Source: Candidatus Izemoplasma sp. | Lineage (GTDB): Bacteria > Bacillota_I > Bacilli_A > Izemoplasmatales > Izemoplasmataceae | Length of the DNA: 64,000 nt | Assembly: GCA_007132465.1 (NCBI GenBank) | Contig: SLOP01000018.1 | Span: 2,017 to 66,016 of the forward strand | Direction: 5' to 3' | In this document: positions 3,824-58,275 of the stretch, in pieces | Layout of the letters: every line of letters starts with the position of its first letter | How positions within the stretch are numbered: the first letter of the stretch is position 1 | Made by a program: the position numbers and the translations under genes | Notes under the pieces: generated by a model | The model's database searches: none | What the model was told of the DNA's origin: nothing | What the model saw: the letters and a program-made list of their open reading frames with translations, nothing else

Positions 3824-4930
3824 TTACATCAATCCTTTCGGCGCATACACGATAAAGGGCACGCGCATTTCATCGGGTGTCGTGGCGGCGTGATGGGCTT
3901 TAAAGGCGGTGCCGCTCACCAGTTCAAAATACTTGTTTGATTTCGCTACGGCCATGAAATCACCAATCGTGTCATCGACCAGTGGGTGTTTTTCACCGTA
4001 ACCAAGCATGCCGCTTTCAAGCACGTACGCGGCGGTATACAGGGTGAAATCATCGCCGTAGCAGGCGTTAAATCGTGTCGTGAATGCTTCGTGACGACCG
4101 GGTTTAACGAAAAACGCCGTGGCCCGTGGCTCCACCGCGGGAGGGCGGAGGAAGGTGTTGCATAGGGCGTGATCTTGCATCAGGTTGATCGGCGTAACGT
4201 CGGTTAGGCCATGGTCAGCGGTCGCCACCAACAGGCACTCCCGATCCATCGTTTCTGCGAAGTGTCGCATCGCGGCGTCGAGGTGCTTGATGACCGTACG
4301 CGTTTCGGCGCTGTGGACACCGTGGGCGTGTTCGGTCAAGTCCGGTTCGGTCGAATACAGATAAACCACCGTACGCGCATGGGCGGTTTGAAAAGCCTTA
4401 ACGCGCTCAAAACCTTGGTCGAGTGTCACGTGGCCACCGCCTTCGATGGGGTCGGGGAACAGATGTGCCGTGGCGATGTTGTCATGTTCATCATCGATTC
4501 GGTCGAGCACCCGTTCATGGGTGAATTTCGCATGAACAGAGGGGGGGATATATTTGGCGGGATCATAGTAATCTTTCTTTAAAAACACGGTGTAATGCGT
4601 GGCTTCAGGTTGCACGTATTGAAACCACCCGATGTGGCCACTTTCAAGCGGCGTCATTCCCGTCAAAAGCGAGGTTGTTGCGGCGACGGTGGTGGAGGGG
4701 AAGGTTGATTGTAGCGTGTCGACGGTGTGCTGTTTTAACCAGAAACCATCGTCCATGGCCTCAATCAGGTTCATGCCTAAGCCATCGAGCACGACAAAGA
4801 CGACATGCGTGTAATCGTGGGCTAACGTTCTAGCAAACACAGGGTTGACCGGATGCAACGTCGGTAAGCCAAAGTGCTTGAGCAGCGTCGCCGGTAAGGT
4901 CACAATCGAGCGAGTGTAATCCATCAACAT
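3824..4930 (-). CDS. Alkaline-phosphatase-superfamily phosphodiesterase/nucleotide pyrophosphatase-like protein
   Basis: Motifs VVLDGLG, TFPSTTVAATTSLLTG and ATADHG match metal-ligand blocks of the type-I phosphodiesterase/NPP family. Start trimmed to the ATG at 4930, which has GGAGG 8 nt upstream; the ORF track extends to 5014. Confidence 0.7.
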   Translation of the reverse strand: MLMDYTRSIVTLPATLLKHFGLPTLHPVNPVFARTLAHDYTHVVFVVLDGLGMNLIEAMDDGFWLKQHTVDTLQSTFPSTTVAATTSLLTGMTPLESGHIGWFQYVQPEATHYTVFLKKDYYDPAKYIPPSVHAKFTHERVLDRIDDEHDNIATAHLFPDPIEGGGHVTLDQGFERVKAFQTAHARTVVYLYSTEPDLTEHAHGVHSAETRTVIKHLDAAMRHFAETMDRECLLVATADHGLTDVTPINLMQDHALCNTFLRPPAVEPRATAFFVKPGRHEAFTTRFNACYGDDFTLYTAAYVLESGMLGYGEKHPLVDDTIGDFMAVAKSNKYFELVSGTAFKAHHAATTPDEMRVPFIVYAPKGLM

Positions 4931-5047
4931 AATGAAAACCTCCGCACCTCTAGTGTATAGTTTGCGAGGCCGTTTTTCAAGAAAAACAGCTCCTGCTGGT
5001 TGTGCCTCACACAAACGGTGTTATAATCGGATTGAAGGAGTGATACG

Positions 5048-23228: not shown

Positions 23229-24032
23229 TTATGCGGTGGTGTCGTTGGTGCTTTCAGGCTCTTCGGTTGCATCAGGGTCTTCGGTGACTTCAGGCTCTTC
23301 GGTGACTTCAGGCTCTTCGGTGTCATCAGGGTCATCGGTATCACCGGGGTCCGTATCATCAGTGCGCCCGCGTTCATCCATGCGACGGCGGACGTGATCA
23401 GGAATCCGTTCACCGCGGTGTTGACGATGGTTCGGCATATCGTGTGCTTCATGGATGATGCCCATCAATTCAGGAATGCTCATCTCAAGCGCTTCCTCGA
23501 GCGTGATTTCGCCATCGGCAGCGGCCACATAAGCAATGCGTAGATGGCCAGGGCTGACGCCGAGGTCTTCGGCTTCAGCGATGAATGCTTCCATGGACAT
23601 GTCAAGGTCTTGGACGATACCGCCGATGCTGCGGCCAATCATCTTGTGTTCGACACGATCGCGAACGCGATCGCGAAGGCCTTCTTCGACGTCGGCGTTT
23701 TCGTTGACGACGGTCACGTAAACCACATTATCTTCACGTGTCGCGTCAAGGTAGCCTTCATCGATGGCAGCGTCGATCCATGCCTCAACGGCATCTTCAA
23801 TGTCCATGTCGATGAAATCGATGTCAAGCGTGGCATAAAGCACTTCAGCATCCTCGTTCAAAAGCGAGTAACTGACAACCTTATCCACAGGGTTAAGGAT
23901 AAACTCAATGCTTGGATTGATTTCCATCAACACATAACTGTCAGCCTCTTCAGCCGTGTCTTGATCAAAAGAACATGCTGCGAGTCCGACAAGCACAAAT
24001 GATGCTAGAAAGAGTAAGAATAGTTTTTTCAT
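23229..24032 (-). CDS. Acidic lipoprotein with a repetitive Glu/Pro/Thr-rich C-terminal tail
   Basis: MKKLFLLFLASFVLVGLAAC signal peptide and lipobox. The tail reads DDTEEPEVTEEPEVTEDPDATEEPEST. Start trimmed to 24032. Confidence 0.6.
   Translation of the reverse strand: MKKLFLLFLASFVLVGLAACSFDQDTAEEADSYVLMEINPSIEFILNPVDKVVSYSLLNEDAEVLYATLDIDFIDMDIEDAVEAWIDAAIDEGYLDATREDNVVYVTVVNENADVEEGLRDRVRDRVEHKMIGRSIGGIVQDLDMSMEAFIAEAEDLGVSPGHLRIAYVAAADGEITLEEALEMSIPELMGIIHEAHDMPNHRQHRGERIPDHVRRRMDERGRTDDTDPGDTDDPDDTEEPEVTEEPEVTEDPDATEEPESTNDTTA
23263..23352 (-). repeat. Five degenerate copies of an 18-nt in-frame tandem repeat
   Basis: The unit TTCAGGCTCTTCGGTGAC (plus-strand reading) recurs at 23263, 23281, 23299, 23317 and 23335. 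It encodes the (E/D)EPE(V/A)T tail of the lipoprotein. Confidence 0.8.
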
Positions 24033-44664: not shown

Positions 44665-47139
44665 ATGAAAAAAACAATGCTATTTATGATGACGGCAATC
44701 CTTGCCATCACGCTCGGCGCATGCCGTCGAGACGAAGCCGACATCGAACGCGTACGCATCGATGATGCCGACGCGGTTTTTTTAGACGATGGGGAAACAC
44801 GCATCACCCGTGGCGACGTATTCAACCGCTTAATCGCCATTGACACACAACGCCTAAACAGCGAAGGCGTCAACTTCTTGCTTGACATGATCGATGAAAC
44901 GTTGCTTGCCGACCGCATGGCAGCCATCGAGCCCGACCGCATTGAAGAAGAGCGTTTGTTGCTGCGTTATGGCACGACCGACAGCGATGAAATCGACACC
45001 ATTGAAAGCAACCCTGTGCAGGCGAAGCATGCTTTAGAAAACTTTACCATGACGTTGCTCCGCTACGGCGTCGATCCGACTGACGAAACGTCTGTTGAGA
45101 CGTTCATCCGCCTTAACCTTGCGCGCCGCGACGTGGCCTATGACTACATGGTGGATCACACCGATGCCAATGATTTCAGCGCCGCGTTACGTCAGCATTA
45201 CCAGAAGGCCAACCGAGGAGATATCACCGCGATTTCTCTCGTGTATCCAACCGCCAAGGCAGCGCTTGAGGCATTCCATGCCCATGACCTCGTGTTTTTG
45301 TATGATGGCGGCATCGGCTGGTATTTCGGCGAGGAGCCTATCGAAACCTTACGGCTTGGTGACTTCAATGACTCCAACACCGAACGGTTAACGGAGGACG
45401 AGGTGTTCGAATACTTTGTGACCCTGTATAATGACCGCTATCCTTACCGCGAGGCTCTCGATTCGTCAATGACCCTTGACACAGCAGCACTCGACGCCCC
45501 GCATTTCCACTTTGATTATCGGGTGTTTGCTAAGGAGGCTAATAACGCGCTTTTAGCAAACATTTTGTTCGATGAACTGTCAGTTGATGGACCGCGTTAC
45601 ACCATCGAACCTCGACGCGTTCACAGGAGCGATGAACGGTTGAGTCGATACCGTGTGCTTTACTTTATCGTCGACCAAGCCCCGCTGACGCCGTTTGAAG
45701 CTTTAGATGACGAGGCCTATGATGCGTTGGTTAATGAATATATCGAAAGCCAATACAGCGCGGCGTTGGAGATCGAAGCGATGATGCATAAGCGCCATGA
45801 TCACGGTTTGGTGATGCATGATGCGTTTTTGCATCGCGCCTACCGCGATATCGACGATGTTGTGACCCAAGGACAAGCTGACGTGGTTGCTTCTTTCGAG
45901 GCAAGGGATGGCTTTGACGTCGCCACGGTGGATGCCCAAACGCTTGACACTGACGCGTATTTCGCGTTCTTGCTTGAACGACTAGGTGGTCAAGTCGTGG
46001 TTGAAATGGCCAAGGAAGCATGGCTGCATCAAAGCGACTATTTCACGTTACTATATGGTGAACCACGCGATATCCGCGACAACGATCATGCGCATATTCT
46101 CGGGTTGTTTGAGGAAATTGAGAGTCTGCGCGAGGAACAGGGCGATGACTTCGATTACTTTATCGTCTCGGAGTTCGGCCGAACCGACGACATCGACTTG
46201 CTGTTATACGTGTTGCTTTGGGATGTTGCTAATCACACCATCCCCGATAACCTTGACCTTGAAAAAGCGCTTGATTACGCTGCCACTCGACGCGATGACT
46301 ATTTCCGTCTGGATGTGGAGCATCTGCTAATTTACGTCGATTTCGACGAGAACTTCGCCCCCGATGATTACACGGCGTTTCTCGATGGGCTGAGCCCAGA
46401 AGCTAAGGCGGCACACGACGCATTAATTGACGCATTTGTCTTAGATATTCGAGCGTTGCACGAGGATGGAGCGCCCTTCGCAGCCATTGCCAAAACGTAC
46501 CTCGAGGCTTCTCACGACGATGAAACCTGGGGTCAATACAAGCAAGCTGGGTTGATTTTACGACATGAAAACCTTAGCCCCACCAACCCCATGCGGGCAG
46601 AAAATCTCCGTCAATACGTCGCTCCGTTCCGCAATCGGTTATACGATATTTATGAAGCTTATACCACCGAGCATGAAGACGACGAACGCGTGCTTGATCC
46701 GTTCCTCGAAACAGATGGACCGGTAGTGACACAATTTGGACAACACATCATTTTAACCGAACGCCCAGAAAACGATTTCTTTCCACCGAGTGCGCGATAC
46801 GAAGGCGAAACAGGCGATAATGAGGATTGGCTCAACGACGAGGACTTACCCACCGCAGCCCAACTGAGCCTTTGGTTGGAACACAAGTTTATCTCCATCT
46901 TCCTGAATGACGACCCTGACTTCGATGTGCCTGAGGATTTGGACGATGCCTTGACGTTCTACTTCGACAGTTATCTCGGACGGTTCTTCCCCTCGATTCA
47001 AAACGACATGGATCCGTTTAACCGCCGATTGACGATTGAACGTTTTTGGTCAGAAGATGTTGTGTTCTCCGATCAAAACGACGTTTTACAAACGAGACTC
47101 GATGTGCTTTACGATCAATACGTTTCGATGCTTGAATAA
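44665..47139 (+). CDS. Very large acidic lipoprotein with a degenerate PrsA/SurA-like parvulin (PpiC) region
   Basis: Lipobox ITLGAC. N-terminal ITRGDVFNRLI resembles PrsA N-domains. Near the C-terminus, VEHLLIYVD ... FAAIAKTYLEASHDD ... VTQFGQHIILTE follows the parvulin pattern (HILV ... FAxLAKxYSxD ... TxFGYHII). Confidence 0.55.
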   Translation: MKKTMLFMMTAILAITLGACRRDEADIERVRIDDADAVFLDDGETRITRGDVFNRLIAIDTQRLNSEGVNFLLDMIDETLLADRMAAIEPDRIEEERLLLRYGTTDSDEIDTIESNPVQAKHALENFTMTLLRYGVDPTDETSVETFIRLNLARRDVAYDYMVDHTDANDFSAALRQHYQKANRGDITAISLVYPTAKAALEAFHAHDLVFLYDGGIGWYFGEEPIETLRLGDFNDSNTERLTEDEVFEYFVTLYNDRYPYREALDSSMTLDTAALDAPHFHFDYRVFAKEANNALLANILFDELSVDGPRYTIEPRRVHRSDERLSRYRVLYFIVDQAPLTPFEALDDEAYDALVNEYIESQYSAALEIEAMMHKRHDHGLVMHDAFLHRAYRDIDDVVTQGQADVVASFEARDGFDVATVDAQTLDTDAYFAFLLERLGGQVVVEMAKEAWLHQSDYFTLLYGEPRDIRDNDHAHILGLFEEIESLREEQGDDFDYFIVSEFGRTDDIDLLLYVLLWDVANHTIPDNLDLEKALDYAATRRDDYFRLDVEHLLIYVDFDENFAPDDYTAFLDGLSPEAKAAHDALIDAFVLDIRALHEDGAPFAAIAKTYLEASHDDETWGQYKQAGLILRHENLSPTNPMRAENLRQYVAPFRNRLYDIYEAYTTEHEDDERVLDPFLETDGPVVTQFGQHIILTERPENDFFPPSARYEGETGDNEDWLNDEDLPTAAQLSLWLEHKFISIFLNDDPDFDVPEDLDDALTFYFDSYLGRFFPSIQNDMDPFNRRLTIERFWSEDVVFSDQNDVLQTRLDVLYDQYVSMLE

Positions 47140-47172: not shown

Positions 47173-47378
47173 CGTGGATAAAGTGACCATTATATAATAT
47201 TAGTCAATACGACACACGAAATCATGCATCGCCCAGTGGCGCAAAAAAATGGTGGCACGCCAAAATGGCATAATCTGTTAAGTAACGCCAAGGCACCACC
47301 AATATACACATCATGTTAATAATGACCGACGAAAGTTGTATAATAAAGGTGTATACCATTATAAGGAGGAGCTATGAG

Positions 47379-49457
47379 ATGAAACGAACACTGTTGTTTA
47401 GCGTCACCTTCCTCGTGCTTTTCGTGGTCGCCGCGTGTCAGCAGGCTGAGGATTTACTCCCTGACCCCACGACCCCAGTTGAAACCACGCCAGACCTGAC
47501 ACCAGACCCGACACCAGACCCGACACCAGACCCGACACCAGACCCGACACCAGACCCGACACCAGATCCGACACCAGACCCGACACCAGATCCGACACCA
47601 ACGCCCACACCTGATCCTGGTGAAGAGGCTGCTCAGGCAGTGATTGCTAGTTGGGACGGCTCGTTTGCTGTCGTGAGCAACGTCATGGATGGCATGGACA
47701 TGGACGACGCACACACGCTTATTTTCACCGTTGACATAAAAGTTGAAGATGAGTGGGGTGTGAACGATGTCTATGTTCAAACCACGGCTCAGTACTTTTA
47801 TGATGCCGGCGTATCCCACGTTCTCTTAACACATCAAACGGACGTAGAAGGCTTAGACATCACCTTGCAACAACTCTTTGTTGTGCACGAAGAATACGTT
47901 GACATTTATTTGCATTTCGGCGCGCTGATGCAGATGGCGATGGCTGAGTTTGACAGTGAAGACGATTTTGGCTTTGACCTGTTTGAGGTGCTCGACATCC
48001 AAGATGGTTGGCTGAAGTTTACGTTTGAGGATTCCATGCAAAACATTGTAGAACTCGCCTTACTTGAACAACTGCTGACAGAGCTTAACTACCTAGAAAT
48101 GGCTGAAGCAATGCTTGCAGACATGCTTGCCGAAATCGATGAGTTTGATTTCGATTTCGAGGACATTGAAGCGATGCTTACACACATCGAAACAAACTTT
48201 GCTCGTTTCATCGATCCTGCCTACTATCATGAACATGATGACATGGACATGTCTATTGGCATGACCGAGGAATTTTACGTCAACCTCATGATGCAACTGA
48301 ACTCAGATATGATTGCGGCGCTTATGGTCGACTTGACTGATGAAGTTTTTGACATGTTAGCGTATTTTGAAATCATGGACGTCGATGAAGAGTTGGACAT
48401 CGAACGCCTTGATGAAGCCTATGTCAAAAACATGATTGACAGTTTGGACTTGACCATGCCGATGATCGAGTGGATTTACAATCCGCTCAATCCGACTCAG
48501 ATGATGCTTCGCCTCGATCTGACCGCCACGTTCAACGACATATTTGCCGCAGAAAGCGGAGAAGACCCCATGACCATGCACCACTTTATCATCACCCTTG
48601 AAATGCAGGAAGGGGCTAACGTTGTGGTGCCGGTTGAATACACAGACATAAACCGCGTGGTCGAAGAAATGGCACAGTTTATGACATTACTGGAAACCGT
48701 CCGCATCGCCATCGTCGCCCACGACATGGGCGAAGGCATTTACACGCTTCAAGACCTTTATGACGCCGGTGCGATGGACGACCAGTGGATGCCGCTTGAT
48801 TTCTTGTATGACGCTGACTTGTCGACGTACACCGTGACCGTAGATGATGTCCTCCTCGACATATTCTACCTCGATGGTCTGCCGGTCTTCGAGGACACCG
48901 TGTCCTTCATGGACACCGTTGAGTTGCTCGGTTACGTGGAAGGCGACTTTGACGATTTCGATCCGATGTTCGATCGTGCTGTGATGGTGACATTGCTCGC
49001 TCATTATGACGAGGCAAACTTCCACCTTACACGCTGGTTCGTCATCTTGATTGCCCAAGGCATTGAAGAAGCGATGCGTGAGATGGAACGCGAAGCGTTT
49101 ATCAATAACATCTACACCCTTGAAGCCGCATTGGATCTCTTTTGTTTTGATGCGGATCCCGAGACATATGAGCTTTATTGCGAAGTCGACATGCAACAAT
49201 GGATGGGTGCCGCTGAAATCATCACACCCGCTATCCTTGATGCATACTTTTTGATGCCGGACGATGGCTTTGACTTCCTCGCGTGGCGCAACGAATACAG
49301 TGAGTGGGAAGTGGCCGTTATGAACGATGAGTTCATCTTCTATGGCGTCACAGATTATGCTGCTTACAATATATGGGATCGCGTGCCTGAGGATCATCTC
49401 GCCGGCATGGTTGCCATGATGGAGTGGGAAATGCGCCAACGCGAACTGGACGATTAA
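47379..49457 (+). CDS. Met/Asp/Glu-rich surface lipoprotein with a (TPDP)n linker, function unknown
   Basis: MKRTLLFSVTFLVLFVVAAC signal peptide and lipobox, with RBS AGGAGG and TGTATAAT upstream. The signal peptide is followed by TPDP repeats and then about 600 aa that are extremely acidic, Met-rich and Lys-poor. Confidence 0.6.
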   Translation: MKRTLLFSVTFLVLFVVAACQQAEDLLPDPTTPVETTPDLTPDPTPDPTPDPTPDPTPDPTPDPTPDPTPDPTPTPTPDPGEEAAQAVIASWDGSFAVVSNVMDGMDMDDAHTLIFTVDIKVEDEWGVNDVYVQTTAQYFYDAGVSHVLLTHQTDVEGLDITLQQLFVVHEEYVDIYLHFGALMQMAMAEFDSEDDFGFDLFEVLDIQDGWLKFTFEDSMQNIVELALLEQLLTELNYLEMAEAMLADMLAEIDEFDFDFEDIEAMLTHIETNFARFIDPAYYHEHDDMDMSIGMTEEFYVNLMMQLNSDMIAALMVDLTDEVFDMLAYFEIMDVDEELDIERLDEAYVKNMIDSLDLTMPMIEWIYNPLNPTQMMLRLDLTATFNDIFAAESGEDPMTMHHFIITLEMQEGANVVVPVEYTDINRVVEEMAQFMTLLETVRIAIVAHDMGEGIYTLQDLYDAGAMDDQWMPLDFLYDADLSTYTVTVDDVLLDIFYLDGLPVFEDTVSFMDTVELLGYVEGDFDDFDPMFDRAVMVTLLAHYDEANFHLTRWFVILIAQGIEEAMREMEREAFINNIYTLEAALDLFCFDADPETYELYCEVDMQQWMGAAEIITPAILDAYFLMPDDGFDFLAWRNEYSEWEVAVMNDEFIFYGVTDYAAYNIWDRVPEDHLAGMVAMMEWEMRQRELDD
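47487..47618 (+). repeat. About eleven copies of a 12-nt in-frame tandem repeat (ACACCAGACCCG)
   Basis: Near-perfect repeats encode TPDL-(TPDP)8-TPTP-TPDP directly after the lipoprotein signal peptide. Confidence 0.9.
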
Positions 49458-49508
49458 CCACCCTTAAGGGACGCATCGATGCGTCCCTTTTTCTTTTCTC
49501 GAAAACCA

Positions 49509-49538
49509 TTGACAACGCTTACATTGTCACAGTATAAT
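49509..49538 (+). promoter_or_regulatory. Sigma-A-type promoter of the lysine-degradation operon
   Basis: TTGACA (49509-49514), 18-nt spacer, TATAAT (49533-49538). Confidence 0.75.
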
Positions 49539-49546
49539 GACGGTGG

Positions 49547-49748
49547 AAAGCTGTACAGAGGTGCGGTGCGTTGGTATTTTTCCCCAGGTTTATGGGCGGG
49601 CACCCGAGGGTGAAAAAGAAGGAGCGCATCGCCGAAGATCGCATCAAGCCCGAGGCGGCGATCTGGGGGTTGTGGGCACGCCACAACCACTGCCATTTTA
49701 TAAAAATGGAGAGCTGTTTTTCATTTGAAAAACAGCTCTTTATCTATT
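49547..49748 (+). promoter_or_regulatory. L-box (lysine) riboswitch with an overlapping intrinsic terminator
   Basis: Conserved LYS-element blocks are present: AGAGGTGCG (49557-49565), CCGAGGG (49604-49610), GGAGCGCATCGCCGAAG (49621-49637), ACTGCCA (49689-49695), hairpin CCATTTT-ATA-AAAATGG and TGGAGAGCTG (49707-49716). These compare with B. subtilis lysC and T. maritima aptamer sequences as I recall them. Confidence 0.85.
49710..49748 (+). terminator. Expression-platform terminator of the L-box leader
   Basis: Perfect 13-bp stem AGAGCTGTTTTTC / GAAAAACAGCTCT with loop ATTT, followed by TTTATCTATT. The 5' arm overlaps the aptamer P1 3' strand. Confidence 0.75.
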
Positions 49749-49764
49749 GAATGAGGTGAAGAAC

Positions 49765-50184
49765 ATGATCCATTCGATGAAGATCGGCGATCGGCGTACC
49801 TTTCGCCGCGCCATCACACAAGCTGACGTTCAACAGTTTGCCGAGGTCACAGGCGACACCAACCCGACGCATCTCGATGCGGCGTACGCCGCCACGACAC
49901 GCTTTAAAAAACCAATCGTTCACGGCATGCTTGTGGGCTCGCTTTTCTCAAAGGTGTTCGGGATGGACTATCCGGGTGAGGGCACGATTTATTGCTCGCA
50001 GACGCTCACCTTTTTAAAACCTGTTTACCCCGACAGCCCACTGACTGTTGAAGTCATTGTCAGACGACTCGATGTTGAGAAAAACCGCGCCTACTTCGAC
50101 ACGCTGATTCACGATCGTGCTGGCGACGTCGTGATCAAGGGCGAAGCCATGGTCATGCCACCCAAGGAGAAACGCAATGCATAA
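49765..50184 (+). CDS. MaoC-like (R)-specific enoyl-CoA hydratase/dehydratase
   Basis: Hot-dog hydratase motif FAEVTGDTNPTHLD ... FKKPIVHGML. Start trimmed to ATG 49765 (GAGGTGA RBS). Confidence 0.8.
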   Translation: MIHSMKIGDRRTFRRAITQADVQQFAEVTGDTNPTHLDAAYAATTRFKKPIVHGMLVGSLFSKVFGMDYPGEGTIYCSQTLTFLKPVYPDSPLTVEVIVRRLDVEKNRAYFDTLIHDRAGDVVIKGEAMVMPPKEKRNA

Positions 50185-50824
50185 AACCATCGACAAACAA
50201 GCCTTCATGGCATTGCTTGACGACAATCAACGCATCGCCGTCGGCGGTTTCATGGCGTGTGGTACGCCGGAGACGCTAATTGATTGGGTGGTTGAATCAG
50301 GCGTGAAAGACCTCACCATCATCTGCAACGACGCCGGGTTTACCGACCGCGGTGTCGGCAAGTTGATTGCCGGTGATCAGGTGAAAAAACTCATCGCTTC
50401 GCACATCGGTCTTAACCCCGAAGCCGGAGCGCGCATGAGTGCCGGAACACTGTCGGTGGAGTTAGTGCCCCAAGGCACGCTCGCCGAACGCATCCGCGCC
50501 CATGGCGCCGGGCTTGGTGGTATTTTGACGCCGACCGGTGTGGGCACGATTGTGGAATCAGGCAAACGCCTCATTGAAACCAATGACAAACGGTATATTT
50601 TGGAACTGCCCTTAGGGGCGGATCTTGCGTTGATTGAAGCTGAGACAACCGACCACAAAGGCAACCTCGTTTACGACAAGACCGCCCGCAACTTTAACCC
50701 TGTCATGGCCACAGCGGCGACGAAGGTGGTTGCCTATGTGCATCAGACGGTCGACATGCTCGACCCTGAAATCATCGTCACGCCACACGTGTTTGTCGAC
50801 CACATCGTCGAGGAGGTGGCTTAG
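50177..50824 (+). CDS. atoD: 3-oxoacid/acetoacetate CoA-transferase subunit A
   Basis: GGF..CGTPE, SHIG.NPE, ELVPQGTLAERIRAGGAG-type block (here RAHGAGLGG) and GNLVYDKTARNFNP. Confidence 0.9.
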   Translation: MHKTIDKQAFMALLDDNQRIAVGGFMACGTPETLIDWVVESGVKDLTIICNDAGFTDRGVGKLIAGDQVKKLIASHIGLNPEAGARMSAGTLSVELVPQGTLAERIRAHGAGLGGILTPTGVGTIVESGKRLIETNDKRYILELPLGADLALIEAETTDHKGNLVYDKTARNFNPVMATAATKVVAYVHQTVDMLDPEIIVTPHVFVDHIVEEVA

Positions 50825-51472
50825 GTGGACGCTAAAAACATCATTGCAAAGCGCGTCGCAAAAGAACTTTACGACGGCGATCTGGTGAACCTTGGCATCG
50901 GCTTGCCAACCTTGGTGGCCAACCATATCCCCGACGCCATCGATGTCTACTTGCAAAGCGAAAACGGCCTCATCGGTCTCGGGCCCAAGCCCGGATCTGA
51001 GGCCATCGATAAAAATTTGACCAACGCCGGCGCCGATTACGTCACACTTAAAAAGGGTGGCATGTATTTCGACTCGGTGATGTCTTTTGGCATCATCCGC
51101 GGGGGCCATGTTGACGTCACAGTGCTTGGGGCGCTTGAAGTTGACCAGCATGGCTCGCTCGCCAGTTGGATCATTCCGGGCAAGCTCGTCCCCGGCATGG
51201 GCGGTGCGATGGATCTTGTGGTCGGCGCGAAAAAAGTCATTGTCGCGACGACCCACACCAACAAAGGCCGCCCGAAAATCAAAGCTGAATGCAGCCTGCC
51301 GCTTACAGCCAAACAAGAAGTCGACATGATTGTGACGGAGATGGGAGTTTTTCATGTCCGTGAAGACGGCTTGCACCTTATTGAACGCCATCCCGAGGTA
51401 ACCATTGAAACCATCGTTGAACAAACCGACGCGCCATTGATCATTGGCGACGTAAAACTTATGGAGGTGTGA
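50825..51472 (+). CDS. atoA: 3-oxoacid/acetoacetate CoA-transferase subunit B
   Basis: [10 protein letters not shown], the QSENGL catalytic-Glu block, [15 protein letters not shown] and LPLT. GTG start with RBS GAGGAGGTGG. Confidence 0.9.
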
Positions 51473-51473
51473 C

Positions 51474-51866
51474 ATGAACACGGTCATTCATAAACTCAGG
51501 CTTTCTCAAACCGACGCCCATTACGGAGGCAACCTTGTCGACGGCGCTCGCATTGTGGCGCTCTTTGGCGATGTTGCCACAGAACTTCTCATTCGCCATG
51601 ACGGCGACGAAGGGCTCTTTCGCGCCTACGATTCGATTGACTTTTTAGCGCCGCTTTATGCCGGTGACATCATTGAAGTCGAGGGTGAAATCATCCGTGT
51701 CGGCACCACCAGCCGCACCATGCGTTTTGAAGCGCGAAAAATCATCACCGCTCGCCCCGATATCGCTGAAAGCGCCGCCGACATGTTAGCCGAGCCAATC
51801 GTGGTGGCCACAGCCACGGGAACCTGCATCGTACCCAACGATAAGCAACGTGATGCCGATGGATAA
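51474..51866 (+). CDS. kal: 3-aminobutyryl-CoA ammonia-lyase (hot-dog fold)
   Basis: 130-aa hot-dog protein ([25 protein letters not shown]) in the position Kal occupies in lysine-fermentation clusters. Assignment rests on size, fold pattern and context. Confidence 0.7.
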
Positions 51867-52701
51867 ACTGATTATTACCGCCGCCTTAACCGGCGCCGAA
51901 GTCACCAAAGAACATACCCCTTACATTCCCTACACCATCGCTGAGATGGTCCGCGAAGCCCGTGAGGCGTCGGAAGCCGGTGCGAGCATTTTGCATGTGC
52001 ATGCCCGCTTTGACGATGGCACCCCGACACAAGACAAAACTCGTTATGAAGAGACGATCAGGGCGATTCGTCAAGCATGCCCCGATGTCATTATTCAACC
52101 TTCGACAGGCGGCGCGGTCGGCATGAATCGTGAGGAGCGCATGCGCGTCACTGAGTTGCCCTTAGAAATGGCGACGCTTGATTGTGGCACCGTCAACTTC
52201 GGTGGCGATGATATCTTTATCAACACCGTCAACGACATCATCTATTTTGCTAAGACCATGCATCAACGCGGCATCTACCCGGAACTTGAATGCTTCGAAA
52301 AAGGCCACATCGACACCGTGCTTACTTTGCATAAAAAAGGCATTATTCACCCACCGATGCACTTCAGTTTCGTGCTTGGTGTGGTTGGAGCGATGAAAGG
52401 TGAGGCACGTGATTTCCACTTTATGCGTGAAAGCATCCCCGATGGAGCGACATACTCCGTCGCTGGCATTGGGCGCTATGAGTTTCCGCTCGCTAAGTTG
52501 GCCATTGAACACGGCGGCCACGTCCGCGTTGGCCTCGAAGACAACATCTACCGAGAAAAAGGCGTGCTCGCCAAAGGCAACGCCGATTTGGTTGCCCACG
52601 TCGTCACCATGGCCGAGGCATTTGGCCGTGAGATTGCCACCCCCAACGACGCACGACGGATTTTGCGTATGAAGGAGTTCGACCATGAACGCATCTTGTG
52701 A
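51859..52701 (+). CDS. kce: 3-keto-5-aminohexanoate cleavage enzyme (BKACE/DUF849 family)
   Basis: [13 protein letters not shown]-terminus, ILHVHAR and further TIM-barrel zinc-ligand blocks typical of Kce. The start could also be 51850 or 51853. Confidence 0.85.
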
Positions 52702-53719
52702 ATACGGAACCCATCGGGTCATCAAACCCAAGGGCGTGCTCCCCCAAGCCGCCGAGATCATCGACAACACGATGGCCATGCAAGCTAACGAAATGGTAAT
52801 CGATGTGAAGACATTAAACATTGATTCGGCCTCATTTCATCAAATTAAAACCGCCTGTGAAAGCGACGGTTCCAAGATGGAAGCGATGATTCAAGCCATC
52901 GTCGCACGCCGCGGCAAAATGCAAAACCCCGTCACCGGCAGTGGAGGCATGCTGATTGGCACCGTGAAAGCCATCGGCGAACACTTCTCAAACCGCGACG
53001 TCAAGGTGGGTGACACGGTGGCAACGCTGGTGTCGCTATCGCTCACCCCGTTGCGTATCGATGCCATCCGGCACATCAACCTTACCAACGATCAAGTTGA
53101 CATTGACGGGGAAGCGATTGTGTTTGATTCTGGCATTGTTGCCGTGTTGCCTAAAGACATGGAAGCCAAACTGGCGTTGGCCGCCTTGGATGTGGCGGGG
53201 GCGCCCGCACAAGTTAAAAGGCTTGCGAAGCCAGGTGACACGGTGTTAATCATCGGCGCCGCCGGTAAAAGCGGCTTGCTGTGTGCCCATCAGGCAAAAG
53301 CAAACATCGGCAGCCAAGGTCGTGTCATCGGCCTAGTCAACGAACCGTGGCAAGTATCGTTGCTCGATGAACTAAACCTCGTTGATGAGGTCTTGCTTAT
53401 CGATGCGACCGATGCCATTGCTGTGCATCGCGAGGTCGCTAAAGCGACCGAAAACAACCTGGCGGATTTAACCATCAACGTCGTCAACGTCGATAACACC
53501 GAGATGGCCTCGGTGCTTGCCACCAAAAACGGCGGAACCGTCTATTTCTTTAGCATGGCGACCTCGTTTACCAAAGCGGCGCTTGGCGCCGAAGGCGTAG
53601 GCAAAGACGTCACCATGATCATCGGCAACGGATATACGAAAAACCACGCCGACATCACGCTGGATATTCTACGATCAAACCGTGCACTGCGAACGCTGTT
53701 TGAGAAAAAATACACCTAA
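52685..53719 (+). CDS. kdd: L-erythro-3,5-diaminohexanoate dehydrogenase
   Basis: N-terminal C.YGTHRVIKPKGVLPQAA and NIDSASF blocks, and a Rossmann motif IIGAAGKSGLL. RBS GAAGGAG. Positioned between kce and kamA. Confidence 0.8.
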   Translation: MNASCEYGTHRVIKPKGVLPQAAEIIDNTMAMQANEMVIDVKTLNIDSASFHQIKTACESDGSKMEAMIQAIVARRGKMQNPVTGSGGMLIGTVKAIGEHFSNRDVKVGDTVATLVSLSLTPLRIDAIRHINLTNDQVDIDGEAIVFDSGIVAVLPKDMEAKLALAALDVAGAPAQVKRLAKPGDTVLIIGAAGKSGLLCAHQAKANIGSQGRVIGLVNEPWQVSLLDELNLVDEVLLIDATDAIAVHREVAKATENNLADLTINVVNVDNTEMASVLATKNGGTVYFFSMATSFTKAALGAEGVGKDVTMIIGNGYTKNHADITLDILRSNRALRTLFEKKYT

Positions 53720-53734
53720 CGAGGAGGGGCGCGT

Positions 53735-55009
53735 ATGAAACTCGCACTCAACGACCGCTACCAACAACGGAAAGACGCCTATTTCGGCGACATACCCGAT
53801 GCCAAGTGGAACGACTGGAAATGGCAAGTTAAGCATCGCATACGCAGCGTCGAAGCGCTGACACGTTACGTCAAACTCACCGAACGAGAAGAACACATCA
53901 TTACCGACGTGCTCGGCCGTTTTCGCATGGCGATTACCCCGTATTACCTCACCTTGATCGACCCCGATGATGCCGAGTGCCCGATGCGCTTACAAGCGAT
54001 TCCACTGGGCAACGAACTGGACATTGGTAAACACGACTTGCTTGATCCGCTTGCGGAAGATTACGATTCGCCCGTGCCAGGGCTGACACACCGTTACCCC
54101 GATCGCGTGCTTTTCCTGATTACGGACATGTGCAGCATGTATTGCCGGCATTGCACCCGACGGCGTTTTGCCGGCATGCGCGACGCTGAAACGTCGATTG
54201 ATCACATCGATGAAGCGATTGCCTACATCGCCGACAACCCACAAATACGTGACGTGCTTCTAAGCGGTGGCGATGCGCTGTTGGTGAGTGACGAACGAAT
54301 CGAATACATCCTAGAGAAACTGCGCGCCATCGACCATGTCGAGGTCATACGCATCGGCACGCGCGCCCCGGTCGTCATGCCACAACGAATCACCGGCAAG
54401 TTGGTCGACATCCTTAAACGCCATCACCCTATCTGGGTTAACACCCACTTCAATCACCCCGACGAAATCACAGCCGACAGCAAAGCGGCGCTCGATAAAC
54501 TCGCCGATGCCGGCATTCCAATCGGCAACCAGAGTGTGCTCCTGCGCGGTGTTAACGACTGCGTCCACATCATGCGCAAACTCGTGACCAAACTCGTCGC
54601 CGTGCGCGTGCGCCCTTACTACATTTATCAATGCGACTTGTCGATGGGCATCGAACATTTCCGCACGCCCATCAGCAAAGGCATCGAAATCATCGAAGGC
54701 TTGCGTGGCCACGTTAGCGGTTTTGCCGTGCCGACCTTTGTCGTCGACGCCCCCGGCGGTGGCGGAAAAATTCCGGTCATGCCCAACTACGTGATATCCC
54801 AAGCACCAGGCAAAACCGTGTTGCGCAACTACGAAGGCGTCATCACAACCTATAGCGAACCGACGCATTACGTTGATCACTGCACCTGCGAAGGGTGCGA
54901 AACCGCCCATACCGATGGTGTCAGCGGCCTTTTGCACGGTGAACGTGTTGCGCTTGAACCCAACCACCTCGCCCGCCGTGATAGGGTTAAACGTGAAAAC
55001 AACCGTTGA
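53735..55009 (+). CDS. kamA: L-lysine 2,3-aminomutase (radical SAM, PLP)
   Basis: Radical-SAM cluster CSMYCRHCTRR, LSGGDALL, the PLP-lysine region and the C-terminal Cys cluster CTCEGC. Confidence 0.95.
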   Translation: MKLALNDRYQQRKDAYFGDIPDAKWNDWKWQVKHRIRSVEALTRYVKLTEREEHIITDVLGRFRMAITPYYLTLIDPDDAECPMRLQAIPLGNELDIGKHDLLDPLAEDYDSPVPGLTHRYPDRVLFLITDMCSMYCRHCTRRRFAGMRDAETSIDHIDEAIAYIADNPQIRDVLLSGGDALLVSDERIEYILEKLRAIDHVEVIRIGTRAPVVMPQRITGKLVDILKRHHPIWVNTHFNHPDEITADSKAALDKLADAGIPIGNQSVLLRGVNDCVHIMRKLVTKLVAVRVRPYYIYQCDLSMGIEHFRTPISKGIEIIEGLRGHVSGFAVPTFVVDAPGGGGKIPVMPNYVISQAPGKTVLRNYEGVITTYSEPTHYVDHCTCEGCETAHTDGVSGLLHGERVALEPNHLARRDRVKRENNR

Positions 55010-55973
55010 CCTACCGTGCGTCATCGGCGTCGTCGGGCTCGCGAAAAACACCGGAAAAACAACCACCCTTAATGCCCTGATTGCCCATCAAACCGCGGAA
55101 GATGTCGCCATCACCAGCATCGGCCTCGACGGTGAAGCCATCGACCAAATCACCCGCCTCCCCAAACCCCGAATTCAACTGCGACAAGGAACCGTTTTCG
55201 CGACCGCCGCCGACACCTTGGCATCGGCCACCTGTGAGCCGGACATCCTTGAAACCACCCCATTTGCCACAGCCCTTGGGCCGGTGATTATCGCGCGCTC
55301 ACGCCAAACGGGACACGCGCTGATTGCCGGACCGACATCAAACCGGGATCTCGCCGCCCTCATCACCCGTTTAAAAAAGCATGCGCGGCGTGTGTACGTG
55401 GACGGTGCGTTCAACCGTGTCACCTTCGCTAATGTGGCTTCGCTAGAAGGCGTGGTGCTCGCCACCGGGGCCGCGCTCAACGATGACATGGAAACGACGC
55501 TTGCTAAAACCGCGCACGTGCTCAGGCTTTTCGCCTTGCCGCATACGCCCGAGTCGCCAGCCGATGTGCTTACCATCGACACCGACGAGGCACGTCACAC
55601 CGTGCCGCAGCGACACCTGAGTGCTGTGCTTAACGCGGGGTCTTCATTACGCAGGGTGCATTGGCCCGGTGCGTTCACCGAACGGACTGCCCGTTTGCTT
55701 GTGAACCATCGTTTGGCAAACTTCACCCTCGTGCTCGACGACGCGACCAAAGCCATCATCGGCGAACGCACGATGCACCATCTTGACACGTTAAACATCA
55801 CCCTGAACGTGCGTCGACCCATTCGTGTTGTGCTCATCACCCTCAATCCCTACAGCCCCAAAGGCAAACATTACGATAAGGACGCATTTTTGCGCGCCGC
55901 CAAAGCGCACTTTGACGTTCCCGTCATCAACGTCATGGACAAGGAGGACCCCGACCATGAAACTCACCCTTGA
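54993..55973 (+). CDS. Uncharacterised P-loop-like protein (candidate accessory or chaperone factor for the aminomutases)
   Basis: 326-aa ORF starting at GTG 54993. The N-terminus VIGVVGLAKNTGKTTTLNALI resembles MobB-style P-loop proteins, though the spacing deviates from the canonical GxxxxGK[ST]. There is a later hhhhDD-like LVLDDA. The ORF overlaps kamA by 17 nt and kamD by 17 nt. Confidence 0.5.
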   Translation: MKTTVDLPCVIGVVGLAKNTGKTTTLNALIAHQTAEDVAITSIGLDGEAIDQITRLPKPRIQLRQGTVFATAADTLASATCEPDILETTPFATALGPVIIARSRQTGHALIAGPTSNRDLAALITRLKKHARRVYVDGAFNRVTFANVASLEGVVLATGAALNDDMETTLAKTAHVLRLFALPHTPESPADVLTIDTDEARHTVPQRHLSAVLNAGSSLRRVHWPGAFTERTARLLVNHRLANFTLVLDDATKAIIGERTMHHLDTLNITLNVRRPIRVVLITLNPYSPKGKHYDKDAFLRAAKAHFDVPVINVMDKEDPDHETHP

Positions 55974-57513
55974 CACCCACACCATCGACGCCTGTCGCCG
56001 CGACGCTCGGCACATCGCCGACGCCATCAAAACCGAACTTGATCCTTACAGCACGGTGTCCGTTGAACGGACCGTGCTTCGCATGCTCGGCATTGACGGC
56101 GTTGACGCCTTTGACGTGCCCTATGTCAACGTGCTCGTCGACCATGTTAAGACGCATGGAGACTTGCGCTTCGGCATCGCTCATCACATGGCCTGGGCCA
56201 TCGCCAGAACCACCAAGACGCCGCAAACGATTGCCAAGCGCGTCGCCGAGGGAGCGATGTCGCTTGGCGACTACTTTGAACCTACAACACCCGATTACAC
56301 GGTCCTTACTCCGTTTATCAACCAGTCGTTCGCACGCATTCGCACGCAACGACAACACCGCGAAACCGTGCTTGAAAACCATCCGGCACCAAGCCCCGAA
56401 AAGTACGTCATCGTGGCCACCGGCAACATCCACGAAGACATCGATCAGGCGCTCTCGGCCGCCGCACGCGGCGCCGACATCATCGCCGTCATTCGGACGA
56501 CCGGCCAATCGCTCTTGGACTATGTGCCCTATGGCGCCACCACCGAAGGGTTTGGCGGCACATACGCCACGCAGGAAAATTTTCGGTTGATGCGTGAGGC
56601 GCTCGATGGCTATCAGCGACACCATGGACGATACGTGAAACTCGTTAACTACGCCAGCGGACTATGCATGCCCGAAATCGCGGCACTTGGCGCCCTTGAA
56701 CGTCTGGATATGATGCTCAACGACTCGCTTTACGGCATCATTTTCCGCGACATCAACATGAAACGAACCCTCATTGATCAAGCTTTTTCCCGGGTCATTT
56801 CCGGCTACGCCGGCATCACCATCAACACCGGCGAAGACAACTACTTGACGACCACCGATGCGTTCGAACACGCCCACACGGTCATCGCCAGTCAGTTCAT
56901 CAACGAACGTTTTGCTGAGCACGCACGCATGCCCGCGACGTTGATGGGACTTGGCCACGCCTATGAGATTGACCCGTCGGTGGACAACAGCTTCCTGTAT
57001 GAAATTGCCCAGGCTCAGCTTTCGCGCCAGCTTTTTCCCGACGCACCGTTGAAATACATGCCACCGACCAAACACATGACCGGCGACATCTTCAAAGGCA
57101 CTGTGCAAAATGCTCTTTTCAACATCGCCTGCGTCACCACCAAACAACAGATTCACCTTCTTGGCATGCCGACCGAGGCAATTCACACCCCGTTCATGAG
57201 CGACCGGGCGCTGGCACTTGCTAACGCGGATTACATCTATAAAGCCTTCAAAGCCTTTGCCGACAGCGTCGATATTAAGCCTGGCAGCCTCATCGAAAAG
57301 CGTGCCCACGCGGTGCTTGACAACGCGCGAACGCTGCTCGATGACATCCGGGAAGAGGGCCTCTTTGTCACGCTAAAAAAAGGCACGTTTGCCGGTGTGT
57401 CTCGCGGTGAAAACGACGGGAAAGGCTTGGGTGGTGTGTTTAAAAAACATCCACTATACACCAATCCTATCATGGAGCGAATGCTTGCCGCGTGCGAGGA
57501 GGATGCCTCATGA
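55957..57513 (+). CDS. kamD: Lysine 5,6-aminomutase alpha subunit
   Basis: 518 aa, TIM-barrel subunit, immediately upstream of and overlapping the B12-binding beta subunit. Start trimmed to ATG 55957 (AAGGAGGA RBS). Confidence 0.85.
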   Translation: MKLTLDTHTIDACRRDARHIADAIKTELDPYSTVSVERTVLRMLGIDGVDAFDVPYVNVLVDHVKTHGDLRFGIAHHMAWAIARTTKTPQTIAKRVAEGAMSLGDYFEPTTPDYTVLTPFINQSFARIRTQRQHRETVLENHPAPSPEKYVIVATGNIHEDIDQALSAAARGADIIAVIRTTGQSLLDYVPYGATTEGFGGTYATQENFRLMREALDGYQRHHGRYVKLVNYASGLCMPEIAALGALERLDMMLNDSLYGIIFRDINMKRTLIDQAFSRVISGYAGITINTGEDNYLTTTDAFEHAHTVIASQFINERFAEHARMPATLMGLGHAYEIDPSVDNSFLYEIAQAQLSRQLFPDAPLKYMPPTKHMTGDIFKGTVQNALFNIACVTTKQQIHLLGMPTEAIHTPFMSDRALALANADYIYKAFKAFADSVDIKPGSLIEKRAHAVLDNARTLLDDIREEGLFVTLKKGTFAGVSRGENDGKGLGGVFKKHPLYTNPIMERMLAACEEDAS

Positions 57514-58256
57514 AACCGTTAATGCGCCCTTATGGAGACACCTTAAACGACGGCAAAATGCAACTTTCCTTCACGCTTCCCATGGAAGTCGGTCCCAAGG
57601 GAGAAGCGGTTGCCAAAGCGCTATGTGAAACGATGGGCGTGGCCGACGCCACCGTCGTTCATAGCGAAGCGTTGAGCGAACACTTCAGCTTTTATATCCT
57701 TTATGGCACCTTGACGCACGCCGTGGATTCCGATGCCGTAGAGGTGCGTGACATCGACACCGAGTCGATGAGCAAAGACGACATTGAAGCGTACATCGAC
57801 GCGCATTTTGATCACCCAATCACGTTCATCGGCGCGTCAACCGGCACCGATGCCCACACCGTCGGCATCGACGCCATTATGAACATGAAAGGCTTCGCCG
57901 GTCATTATGGCCTCGAACGTTACCGCCACGTGAAGGCCATCAACCTCGGCAGCCAAGTGGATAACGAGACGCTCCTCGAAGAAGCCATCAAACACCATGC
58001 CGACGTTATTTTGATCAGCCAAACGGTGACGCAAAAAGACGTGCACATCCACAACTTGACGGCATTCATTGAGTTGTTGGAGGCGGAAAACCGTCGCGAC
58101 GATTTTCTCCTCATCATCGGCGGCCCGAGAATCACCCACGCCCTAGCCAAAGAACTTGGATACGATGCGGGTTTCGGACCCAAAAAATACGCCCACGACG
58201 TGGCGAGTTTCGCCGCGCAGGCGCTTGTTAATAAACGCAGTCAATCAAAACGCTGA
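57510..58256 (+). CDS. kamE: Lysine 5,6-aminomutase beta subunit (AdoCbl- and PLP-binding)
   Basis: Base-off/His-on cobalamin motif DAHTVG within GASTGTDAHTVGIDAI, and a Rossmann-like B12 domain. ATGA start/stop overlap with kamD. Confidence 0.9.
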   Translation: MKPLMRPYGDTLNDGKMQLSFTLPMEVGPKGEAVAKALCETMGVADATVVHSEALSEHFSFYILYGTLTHAVDSDAVEVRDIDTESMSKDDIEAYIDAHFDHPITFIGASTGTDAHTVGIDAIMNMKGFAGHYGLERYRHVKAINLGSQVDNETLLEEAIKHHADVILISQTVTQKDVHIHNLTAFIELLEAENRRDDFLLIIGGPRITHALAKELGYDAGFGPKKYAHDVASFAAQALVNKRSQSKR

Positions 58257-58275
58257 CCTCAATCAGCGTTTTTCT
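58247..58275. terminator. Bidirectional terminator shared by kamE and the convergent HD-GYP gene
   Basis: AAAACGCTGA-CCTCAA-TCAGCGTTTT. Both stop codons (58254-58256 and 58263-58265) lie in the stem arms. Confidence 0.8.

Follow-up and report, generated by a model that had tools for sequence, protein, structure and literature searches.

The lysine riboswitch (L-box) of Bacillus subtilis lysC acts through a separate downstream terminator. The 3' strand of its helix P1 and the 5' arm of the terminator form an antiterminator, hence lysine causes termination. The best-studied transcriptional ON-switch is the pbuE (ydhL) adenine riboswitch. For lysine, an ON-riboswitch for metabolic control was reportedly engineered from an OFF-switch by Zhou and Zeng in 2015. 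Natural lysine-activated riboswitches are predictions two decades old. In their statement on this point, Barrick and Breaker (2007; PMC2258182) cite Rodionov 2003 for certain lysine riboswitches that follow ON logic and bury pieces of terminator stems, and the LYS element of Thermoanaerobacter tengcongensis is referred to there as a predicted lysine ON-riboswitch (Rodionov et al., 2003, NAR 31:6748, via PMC2258182). In section 13 of a 2017 survey (PMC5584792), the kal and kce genes of C. sticklandii, F. nucleatum, T. tengcongensis and T. wiegelii are listed as preceded by lysine riboswitches, which are taken to exert positive regulation with reference to Serganov and Patel (2009). These passages bear out the mention of early proposals for activating LYS elements in an earlier interpretation made from the letters alone (the sequence-only reading). 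Lysine ON-switches on lysine-catabolic operons are already published as predictions, and no experimental test of a natural one was found in the full-text literature searched.

The leader described here lies in a 64-kb window (the whole stretch of DNA that was analysed) in front of a ten-gene operon, and we read it, with a probability of roughly 85%, as a lysine riboswitch that serves this operon as a transcriptional ON-switch by lysine-induced antitermination. With the L-box of B. subtilis lysC it shares the five-helix aptamer, the conserved core, the L2-L3 kissing loop and the transcription-termination platform. In contrast to lysC, the leader lacks a separate antiterminator, the direct competitor of the terminator is P1, and the genes are catabolic, not biosynthetic. 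P1 comprises 4 bp here and 6 in the Rfam model. The features of a classical OFF-type leader are absent, as there is no separate terminator that coexists with the aptamer and the operon serves neither lysine biosynthesis nor uptake. In B. subtilis pbuE, the P1 3' strand is likewise shared with the terminator 5' arm and the terminator is likewise far more stable than the aptamer, which implies a kinetic co-transcriptional decision; aptamer class and ligand differ, and the present aptamer, a five-way junction, is far larger. By their published description, the predicted ON leaders of T. tengcongensis, C. sticklandii, F. nucleatum and T. wiegelii show the same aptamer family, pathway and logic, in which the ligand buries part of the terminator stem. 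The host lineage here differs from theirs (the nearest relative in the genome collection is Izemoplasmatales-like and comes from a soda lake), and the first genes of the operon encode a MaoC dehydratase and a CoA-transferase instead of Kal or a pspF-type regulator.

A Lysine Riboswitch in Front of a Lysine Fermentation Operon

The Rfam lysine riboswitch model RF00168 matches positions 49548-49724 on the + strand with 72.5 bits (E = 5.2e-17; gathering score 30). The match extends over the full model (positions 1-182 of 182) and is the sole Rfam family match within the window. The L-box identity claimed by the sequence-only reading, which had named a covariance-model scan as a check, is thus confirmed; moreover, all motifs and coordinates that it gave are correct when read in the sequence. 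Promoter, leader and aptamer are composed as follows (LYS-element blocks as read in the sequence, helices from the covariance-model alignment):

49509-49538, + strand: sigma-70-type promoter with -35 element TTGACA (49509-49514), 18-nt spacer and -10 element TATAAT (49533-49538)
49510-49523, + strand: cre-like operator TGACAACGCTTACA, overlapping the -35 element and matching the consensus TGWNANCGNTNWCA
49545-49554, + strand: short 5' leader GGAAAGCUGU
49547-49554 and 49732-49741, + strand: leader segment AAAGCTGT and terminator-side segment ACAGCTCTTT, read in the sequence
49548-49724, + strand: lysine riboswitch aptamer (L-box, RF00168), extent according to the Rfam model
49555-49558, + strand: P1 5' strand ACAG, facing CTGT at 49714-49717
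49557-49565, + strand: LYS-element block AGAGGTGCG
49563-49632, + strand: P2 arm with helices 49563-49571/49624-49632 and 49577-49584/49610-49617 and loop L2 GGGC (49598-49601)
49604-49610, + strand: LYS-element block CCGAGGG
49621-49637, + strand: LYS-element block GGAGCGCATCGCCGAAG
49636-49664, + strand: P3 hairpin with loop L3 GCCC (49648-49651), kissing pair with L2
49665-49691, + strand: P4 hairpin (Rfam alignment and covariation)
49689-49695, + strand: LYS-element block ACTGCCA
49693-49709, + strand: P5 hairpin CCAUUUU/AAAAUGG, in DNA CCATTTT (49693-49699) and AAAATGG (49703-49709); 92% paired
49707-49716, + strand: LYS-element block TGGAGAGCTG

The parsed alignment puts P2 to P5 on 49563-49709 and P1 exactly where it had been placed before, with the pairs G49558-C49714, A49557-U49715, C49556-G49716 and A49555-U49717, after which come a U-U mismatch and a G.U pair. 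The core blocks AGAGG-GC, GCCGAA, CUG-CA and UGGAG-GCU of the Rfam consensus are all present, and the majority of their positions show little or no variation in 60 leaders (alignment A2). An extension of P1 by GGAAA/UUUUC over a 5-nt bulge is energetically allowed (-61.1 versus a minimum of -64.1 at transcript end 49722) and was rejected, the corresponding columns (pairs 12-200 and 13-199) being mostly unpaired in the orthologues. An 80-aa ORF at 49454-49696 was discarded as well because it sits inside the riboswitch.

The promoter matches the consensus at 12/12 positions in a simple scan and is as good as the sequence-only reading had claimed. Transcription would start near G49545, about 10 nt 5' of the aptamer, as predicted from the promoter. 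The same promoter is kept in the orthologues, and the distance from the -10 element to ACAG is 14-15 nt in 39 of 60 leaders. According to the same scan, the preceding gene has its terminator at 49466-49489. An inverted repeat TGACAA-N8-TTGTCA at 49510-49529 spans the promoter spacer and was called a terminator-like site on the minus strand; it is not conserved in the nearest relative (L001) or in other orthologues. Further upstream, two large ORFs at 44665-47139 (824 aa) and 47313-49457 (714 aa) have no meaningful Pfam match.

Downstream of the leader follow:

49753-49767, + strand: ribosome-binding site GAGGUGA (49753-49759) and ATG (49765-49767) of the first gene, frame checked
49765-58256, + strand: ten-gene lysine-fermentation operon (ORFs and NCBIfam models)

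The genes encode, in this order, a MaoC-type dehydratase, CoA-transferase subunits A and B, 3-aminobutyryl-CoA ammonia lyase (kal), 3-keto-5-aminohexanoate cleavage enzyme (kce), 3,5-diaminohexanoate dehydrogenase (kdd), lysine 2,3-aminomutase (kamA), a reactivase subunit (kamB) and the alpha and beta subunits of lysine 5,6-aminomutase (kamD and kamE). The products from kal to kamE pass the NCBIfam equivalog cut-offs for KAL, KCE, KDD, lysine 2,3-aminomutase, KamB and both lysine 5,6-aminomutase subunits. Judged by these predicted functions, the operon is a complete lysine-to-acetate/butyrate fermentation pathway, and the lysine-catabolic operon of the sequence-only reading stands. Since a complete lysine-consuming pathway lies downstream, lysine induction makes physiological sense. 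A convergent gene begins at 58263, after the operon, and no further regulatory link was found in the neighbouring genes. The mechanical ORFs of kamB (54873-55973) and kamD (55825-57513) overlap their upstream neighbours by about 140 nt. The true starts are probably near 55020 and 55960, because the family models first match at residues 51 and 46, respectively.

Overlap of the Aptamer With an Intrinsic Terminator

The 3' end of the leader is formed by two elements:

49710-49739, + strand: intrinsic terminator hairpin of 13 perfect bp with a 4-nt loop; arms AGAGCTGTTTTTC (49710-49722) and GAAAAACAGCTCT (49727-49739) with loop ATTT, as RNA AGAGCUGUUUUUC and GAAAAACAGCUCU with loop AUUU
49740-49748, + strand: U-rich tail UUAUCUAUU (6 U of 9), weaker than in orthologues

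The 5' arm of this hairpin contains the junction core bases AGAG and the whole P1 3' strand CUGU (49714-49717). As aptamer and hairpin share 49710-49717, the lysine-bound aptamer and the terminator cannot coexist. The absence of spare sequence between P1 and the terminator, asserted beforehand, is evident from these positions. Between 49739 and the ribosome-binding site, neither a second hairpin nor a separate antiterminator was found.

The U tract after the stem (TTATCTATT) is interrupted and poorer than the tracts of the orthologues. A simple terminator scan listed the 49710-49739 hairpin on the minus strand only. With an interrupted tract and a hairpin absent from the + strand list, termination may be inefficient in this copy. 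A terminator on the minus strand was rejected because the hairpin is palindromic and no minus-strand gene ends there. A local fold at 49744-49782, in which UAUUGAAUG pairs with CAUUCGAUG, encloses the ribosome-binding site and the start codon; this pairing is probably due to chance, and no equivalent hairpin is seen in the fold of the nearest relative.

The terminator hairpin alone folds with -22.4 kcal/mol (z = -7.6 versus shuffles). For the whole leader, the ligand-free minimum-energy fold has -84.2 kcal/mol (z = -5.0) and retains P2 to P5, while the terminator hairpin replaces P1. Stepwise folding from G49545 gives a P1-type closing helix as long as the transcript ends at 49722-49726, and the terminator takes over at 49739. 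Before the 3' arm exists, the canonical P1 fold is within 2.4-2.7 kcal/mol of the minimum. Constrained folding of both alternative structures of the full leader, another of the checks named earlier, yields -79.0 kcal/mol for the terminator fold and -69.0 kcal/mol for the best fold that contains P1. The affinity of lysine riboswitches is roughly micromolar, which corresponds to a binding energy of about 4 kcal/mol at physiological lysine. This cannot close a gap of 10 kcal/mol, and we therefore infer that the decision is kinetic and co-transcriptional.

With P1 imposed as a constraint, AGCUGU (49549-49554) is paired with ACAGCU (49732-49737) in the minimum-energy fold, and a 5-bp UUUUC/GAAAA stub is left. 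The pairing of the leader AAAGCUGU with the terminator 3' arm, a further proposal of the sequence-only reading, is thus real in this copy but not conserved in the group. Among 53 distinct leaders, the mean duplex energy is -2.6 kcal/mol for cognate pairs versus -2.3 kcal/mol for both shuffled leaders and non-cognate pairs, and the pairing was rejected as a group feature. It is strong only in the window (-9.2 kcal/mol, equalled by 5.7% of shuffled leaders) and in its nearest relative (-9.9 kcal/mol). Capture of the 3' arm by the leader is possibly a lineage-specific reinforcement outside the core mechanism. The sequence CTGTACAG (49551-49558) covers the leader end together with the 5' strand of P1 and forms a perfect palindrome of 8 bp, and for this reason the leader can pair with both terminator arms (CUGU with ACAG and ACAG with CUGU).

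Conservation of the Arrangement

The Kce protein of the window is identical to a protein on a soda-lake sediment metagenome contig (JGI 3300000563, SL_3KL_010_SED), and the nearest genome in a species-representative collection is a Candidatus Izimaplasma from soda-lake sediment with 87% Kce identity. We compared 80 kce loci from Izemoplasmatales, Acholeplasmataceae, Christensenellales, Clostridia and other Bacillota, and 64 of them carry a lysine riboswitch on the operon strand. A motif search accounts for 58 of the 80, located 0.4-2.3 kb upstream of kce. Regex matches in two loci (L054 and L060) were dropped as false positives inside coding sequence. Rfam added six riboswitches among the seven motif-negative loci with full upstream sequence; the scan was applied to these seven. 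By their match positions, most of the other motif-negative loci are truncated upstream of kce or lie on short contigs. In the remaining locus (L077, Bacillales bacterium UBA2253), no lysine riboswitch reaches the Rfam gathering threshold in the 10 kb upstream of kce. Thus, control of the pathway seems to differ in at least one lineage.

Of the orthologous leaders, 63 have a readable 3' end, a count that omits one leader running into masked bases (L039), and in 62 of these the P1 3' strand forms part of the terminator 5' arm. The mutual exclusion of P1 and terminator, on which the sequence-only reading was built, therefore holds in the window and in nearly all readable relatives. In the orthologues, the hairpins mostly begin 4-6 nt before the P1 C, within GGAGAG, and the upper stems have unrelated sequences with the pairing retained. 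Most tails contain 7-8 U of 9.

Covariation in the orthologous leaders, likewise suggested as a check, was assessed with the 60-sequence alignment A2 and the Rfam-derived aptamer structure against shuffles and slid controls. The aptamer helices and the L2-L3 kissing loop covary: 81% of the aptamer cells are paired (67% in shuffles and 38-49% in slid controls), 42 of 53 aptamer pairs show changes on both sides, and the covariation score of 0.40 (0.17 in shuffles) is reached in 0 of 500 shuffles. P2, P4 and P5 are 86-95% paired. In the kissing loop (GGGC at 49598-49601 with GCCC at 49648-49651), 92.9% of the cells are paired and all four pairs change on both sides (GGAC/GUCC, GAAC/GUUC and GGGC/GCCC). 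By column, covariation of the terminator is weak, because the aptamer dictates the sequence of the 5' arm and variable upper stems of differing length are misaligned by MAFFT; terminator support in the orthologues was hence taken from per-sequence folds.

The four inner P1 pairs (ACAG/CUGU) are almost invariant and kept in 54-60 of the 60 sequences, and in the two leaders that diverge both strands have changed in concert. Of the further P1 pairs in the model, the fifth is unpaired in 50 and the sixth in 30 of the 60 sequences, thus a 4-bp P1 is the norm in this group. The caveat that the Watson-Crick part of P1 looks short was correct as to its length; it does not point to a defect of this copy but describes the conserved state of the group.

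Proposed Mechanism and Alternative Explanations

Without lysine, the 3' arm GAAAAACAGCUCU would pair with AGAGCUGUUUUUC as soon as it is made. The aptamer would thereby lose its P1 3' strand and the AGAG of its core, and RNA polymerase would be halted before the first gene by the 13-bp hairpin and the U-rich tail behind it. If lysine is bound by about position 49725, the closed five-way junction would keep CUGU in P1 and AGAG in the binding core. In the lysine-bound state only the 5-bp UUUUC/GAAAA stub would be possible, 8 nt from the U tract, and read-through would result. Any fold that retains P1 is less stable than the terminator fold by about 10 kcal/mol; the choice would therefore be a kinetic one, taken while the RNA is being transcribed, as for the adenine ON-switch of pbuE. 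Both here and in the nearest relative, the 5' leader may additionally capture the freed 3' arm (AGCUGU with ACAGCU) and might lock the read-through state, and the cre-like operator that overlaps the -35 element probably contributes catabolite repression.

Lysine-induced antitermination, as the sequence-only reading had predicted, is supported by the combination of mutual exclusion, the lack of an alternative terminator and an arrangement that is conserved across orders in front of lysine-consuming genes. Binding of lysine, and both the direction and the size of the response, are predicted on these grounds. A P1 of four Watson-Crick pairs is short for holding off a 13-bp competitor, and this counts against the ON reading.

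A real aptamer might also be combined with a poor terminator, in which case control of the operon would lie mainly with the cre-like operator or a different protein regulator, and a minor role would be left to the riboswitch, or it would act via RNA stability or translation. The weak, interrupted U tract of the window (6 U of 9), the missing + strand entry in the terminator scan and the conserved operator overlapping the -35 element all speak for this possibility. However, the orthologues keep strong U tracts right behind the same hairpin, and the long stem (13-17 bp, -22.4 kcal/mol) can offset a weak tail. The conservation of the aptamer-terminator overlap across orders argues for selection, and a translational variant lacks an obvious basis because the ribosome-binding site is located outside both alternative structures. 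We therefore regard a poor terminator as unlikely.

The ligand could be a related compound rather than L-lysine. Intermediates of the pathway are lysine isomers, and the invariant 4-bp P1 of this catabolic subgroup is unusual, hence beta-lysine or D-lysine might be sensed. Yet the Rfam core blocks are complete and at most positions hardly vary across the 60 leaders, and there is no sign of a remodelled binding pocket, which makes a different ligand very improbable. Less probable still is a classical OFF-switch in which lysine promotes termination as in B. subtilis lysC, even if the majority of described lysine riboswitches are of this type. It would require terminator and bound aptamer to exist together, but 49710-49717 is shared between them and no second hairpin is available before the ribosome-binding site. 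Moreover, the regulated genes consume lysine.

A Candidate Operator and Implications of the Design

The consensus TGWNANCGNTNWCA has two matches in the window versus 0.34 expected by chance. In the orthologous promoters, TGACA[AG]CGCTT[AT]CA is present in 53 of 60, with spacer positions conserved to 92-98%. The site at 49510-49523 is thus a probable binding site candidate for CcpA or another LacI-family repressor, and its sequence suggests that CcpA-type catabolite repression might be added on top of the riboswitch. If true, the operon would respond to lysine in combination with the lack of a preferred carbon source. Apart from this site, the window has a single exact match, TGAAATCGATGTCA at 23813-23826.

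From the comparison, lysine may induce its own fermentation at the RNA level in Izemoplasmatales, Acholeplasmataceae and related Bacillota, and catabolite repression probably acts on the promoter in addition. New here are the wide occurrence of this design among lysine fermenters of the Izemoplasmatales, Acholeplasmataceae and other Bacillota, the invariance of the 4-bp P1, the reach of the terminator into the binding core and the conserved cre-like operator over the promoter. One aptamer family would reverse its logic simply by loss of the antiterminator. The leader and its 60-plus relatives represent a compact natural design with a 4-bp P1 and a directly overlapping terminator that could serve as a lysine sensor. 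More tentatively, these leaders might constitute a distinct and widespread natural lysine ON subgroup, defined by the invariant 4-bp P1 (ACAG/CUGU) and a terminator that invades the binding core (GAGAG). The soda-lake lineage would add leader capture (three-helix read-through state), and the switch would lie under the cre-type operator. Should this be confirmed, no natural lysine-ON part would have been characterised earlier. No earlier report of a distinct lysine ON-switch subgroup with a minimal P1 was found in the literature searched.

Several related loci deviate from this pattern. A second leader type is located directly before kal-kce in L058 (9389-9590), L080 (4651-4841) and L065 (9408-9620). 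In these kal-first leaders P1 differs (GGUAG/CUACC or GUGG/CCAC) and the overlap of P1 with the terminator is shorter, with just 1-2 nt in L065; ON versus OFF logic is less clear-cut for them. In L058 and L080, the operator core ACGCTTACA is found 3' of the -10 element instead. The Acholeplasmataceae locus L039 carries a cobalamin riboswitch (4827-4996, 83 bits) about 3 kb upstream of its lysine riboswitch, which is of interest because lysine 5,6-aminomutase needs adenosylcobalamin.
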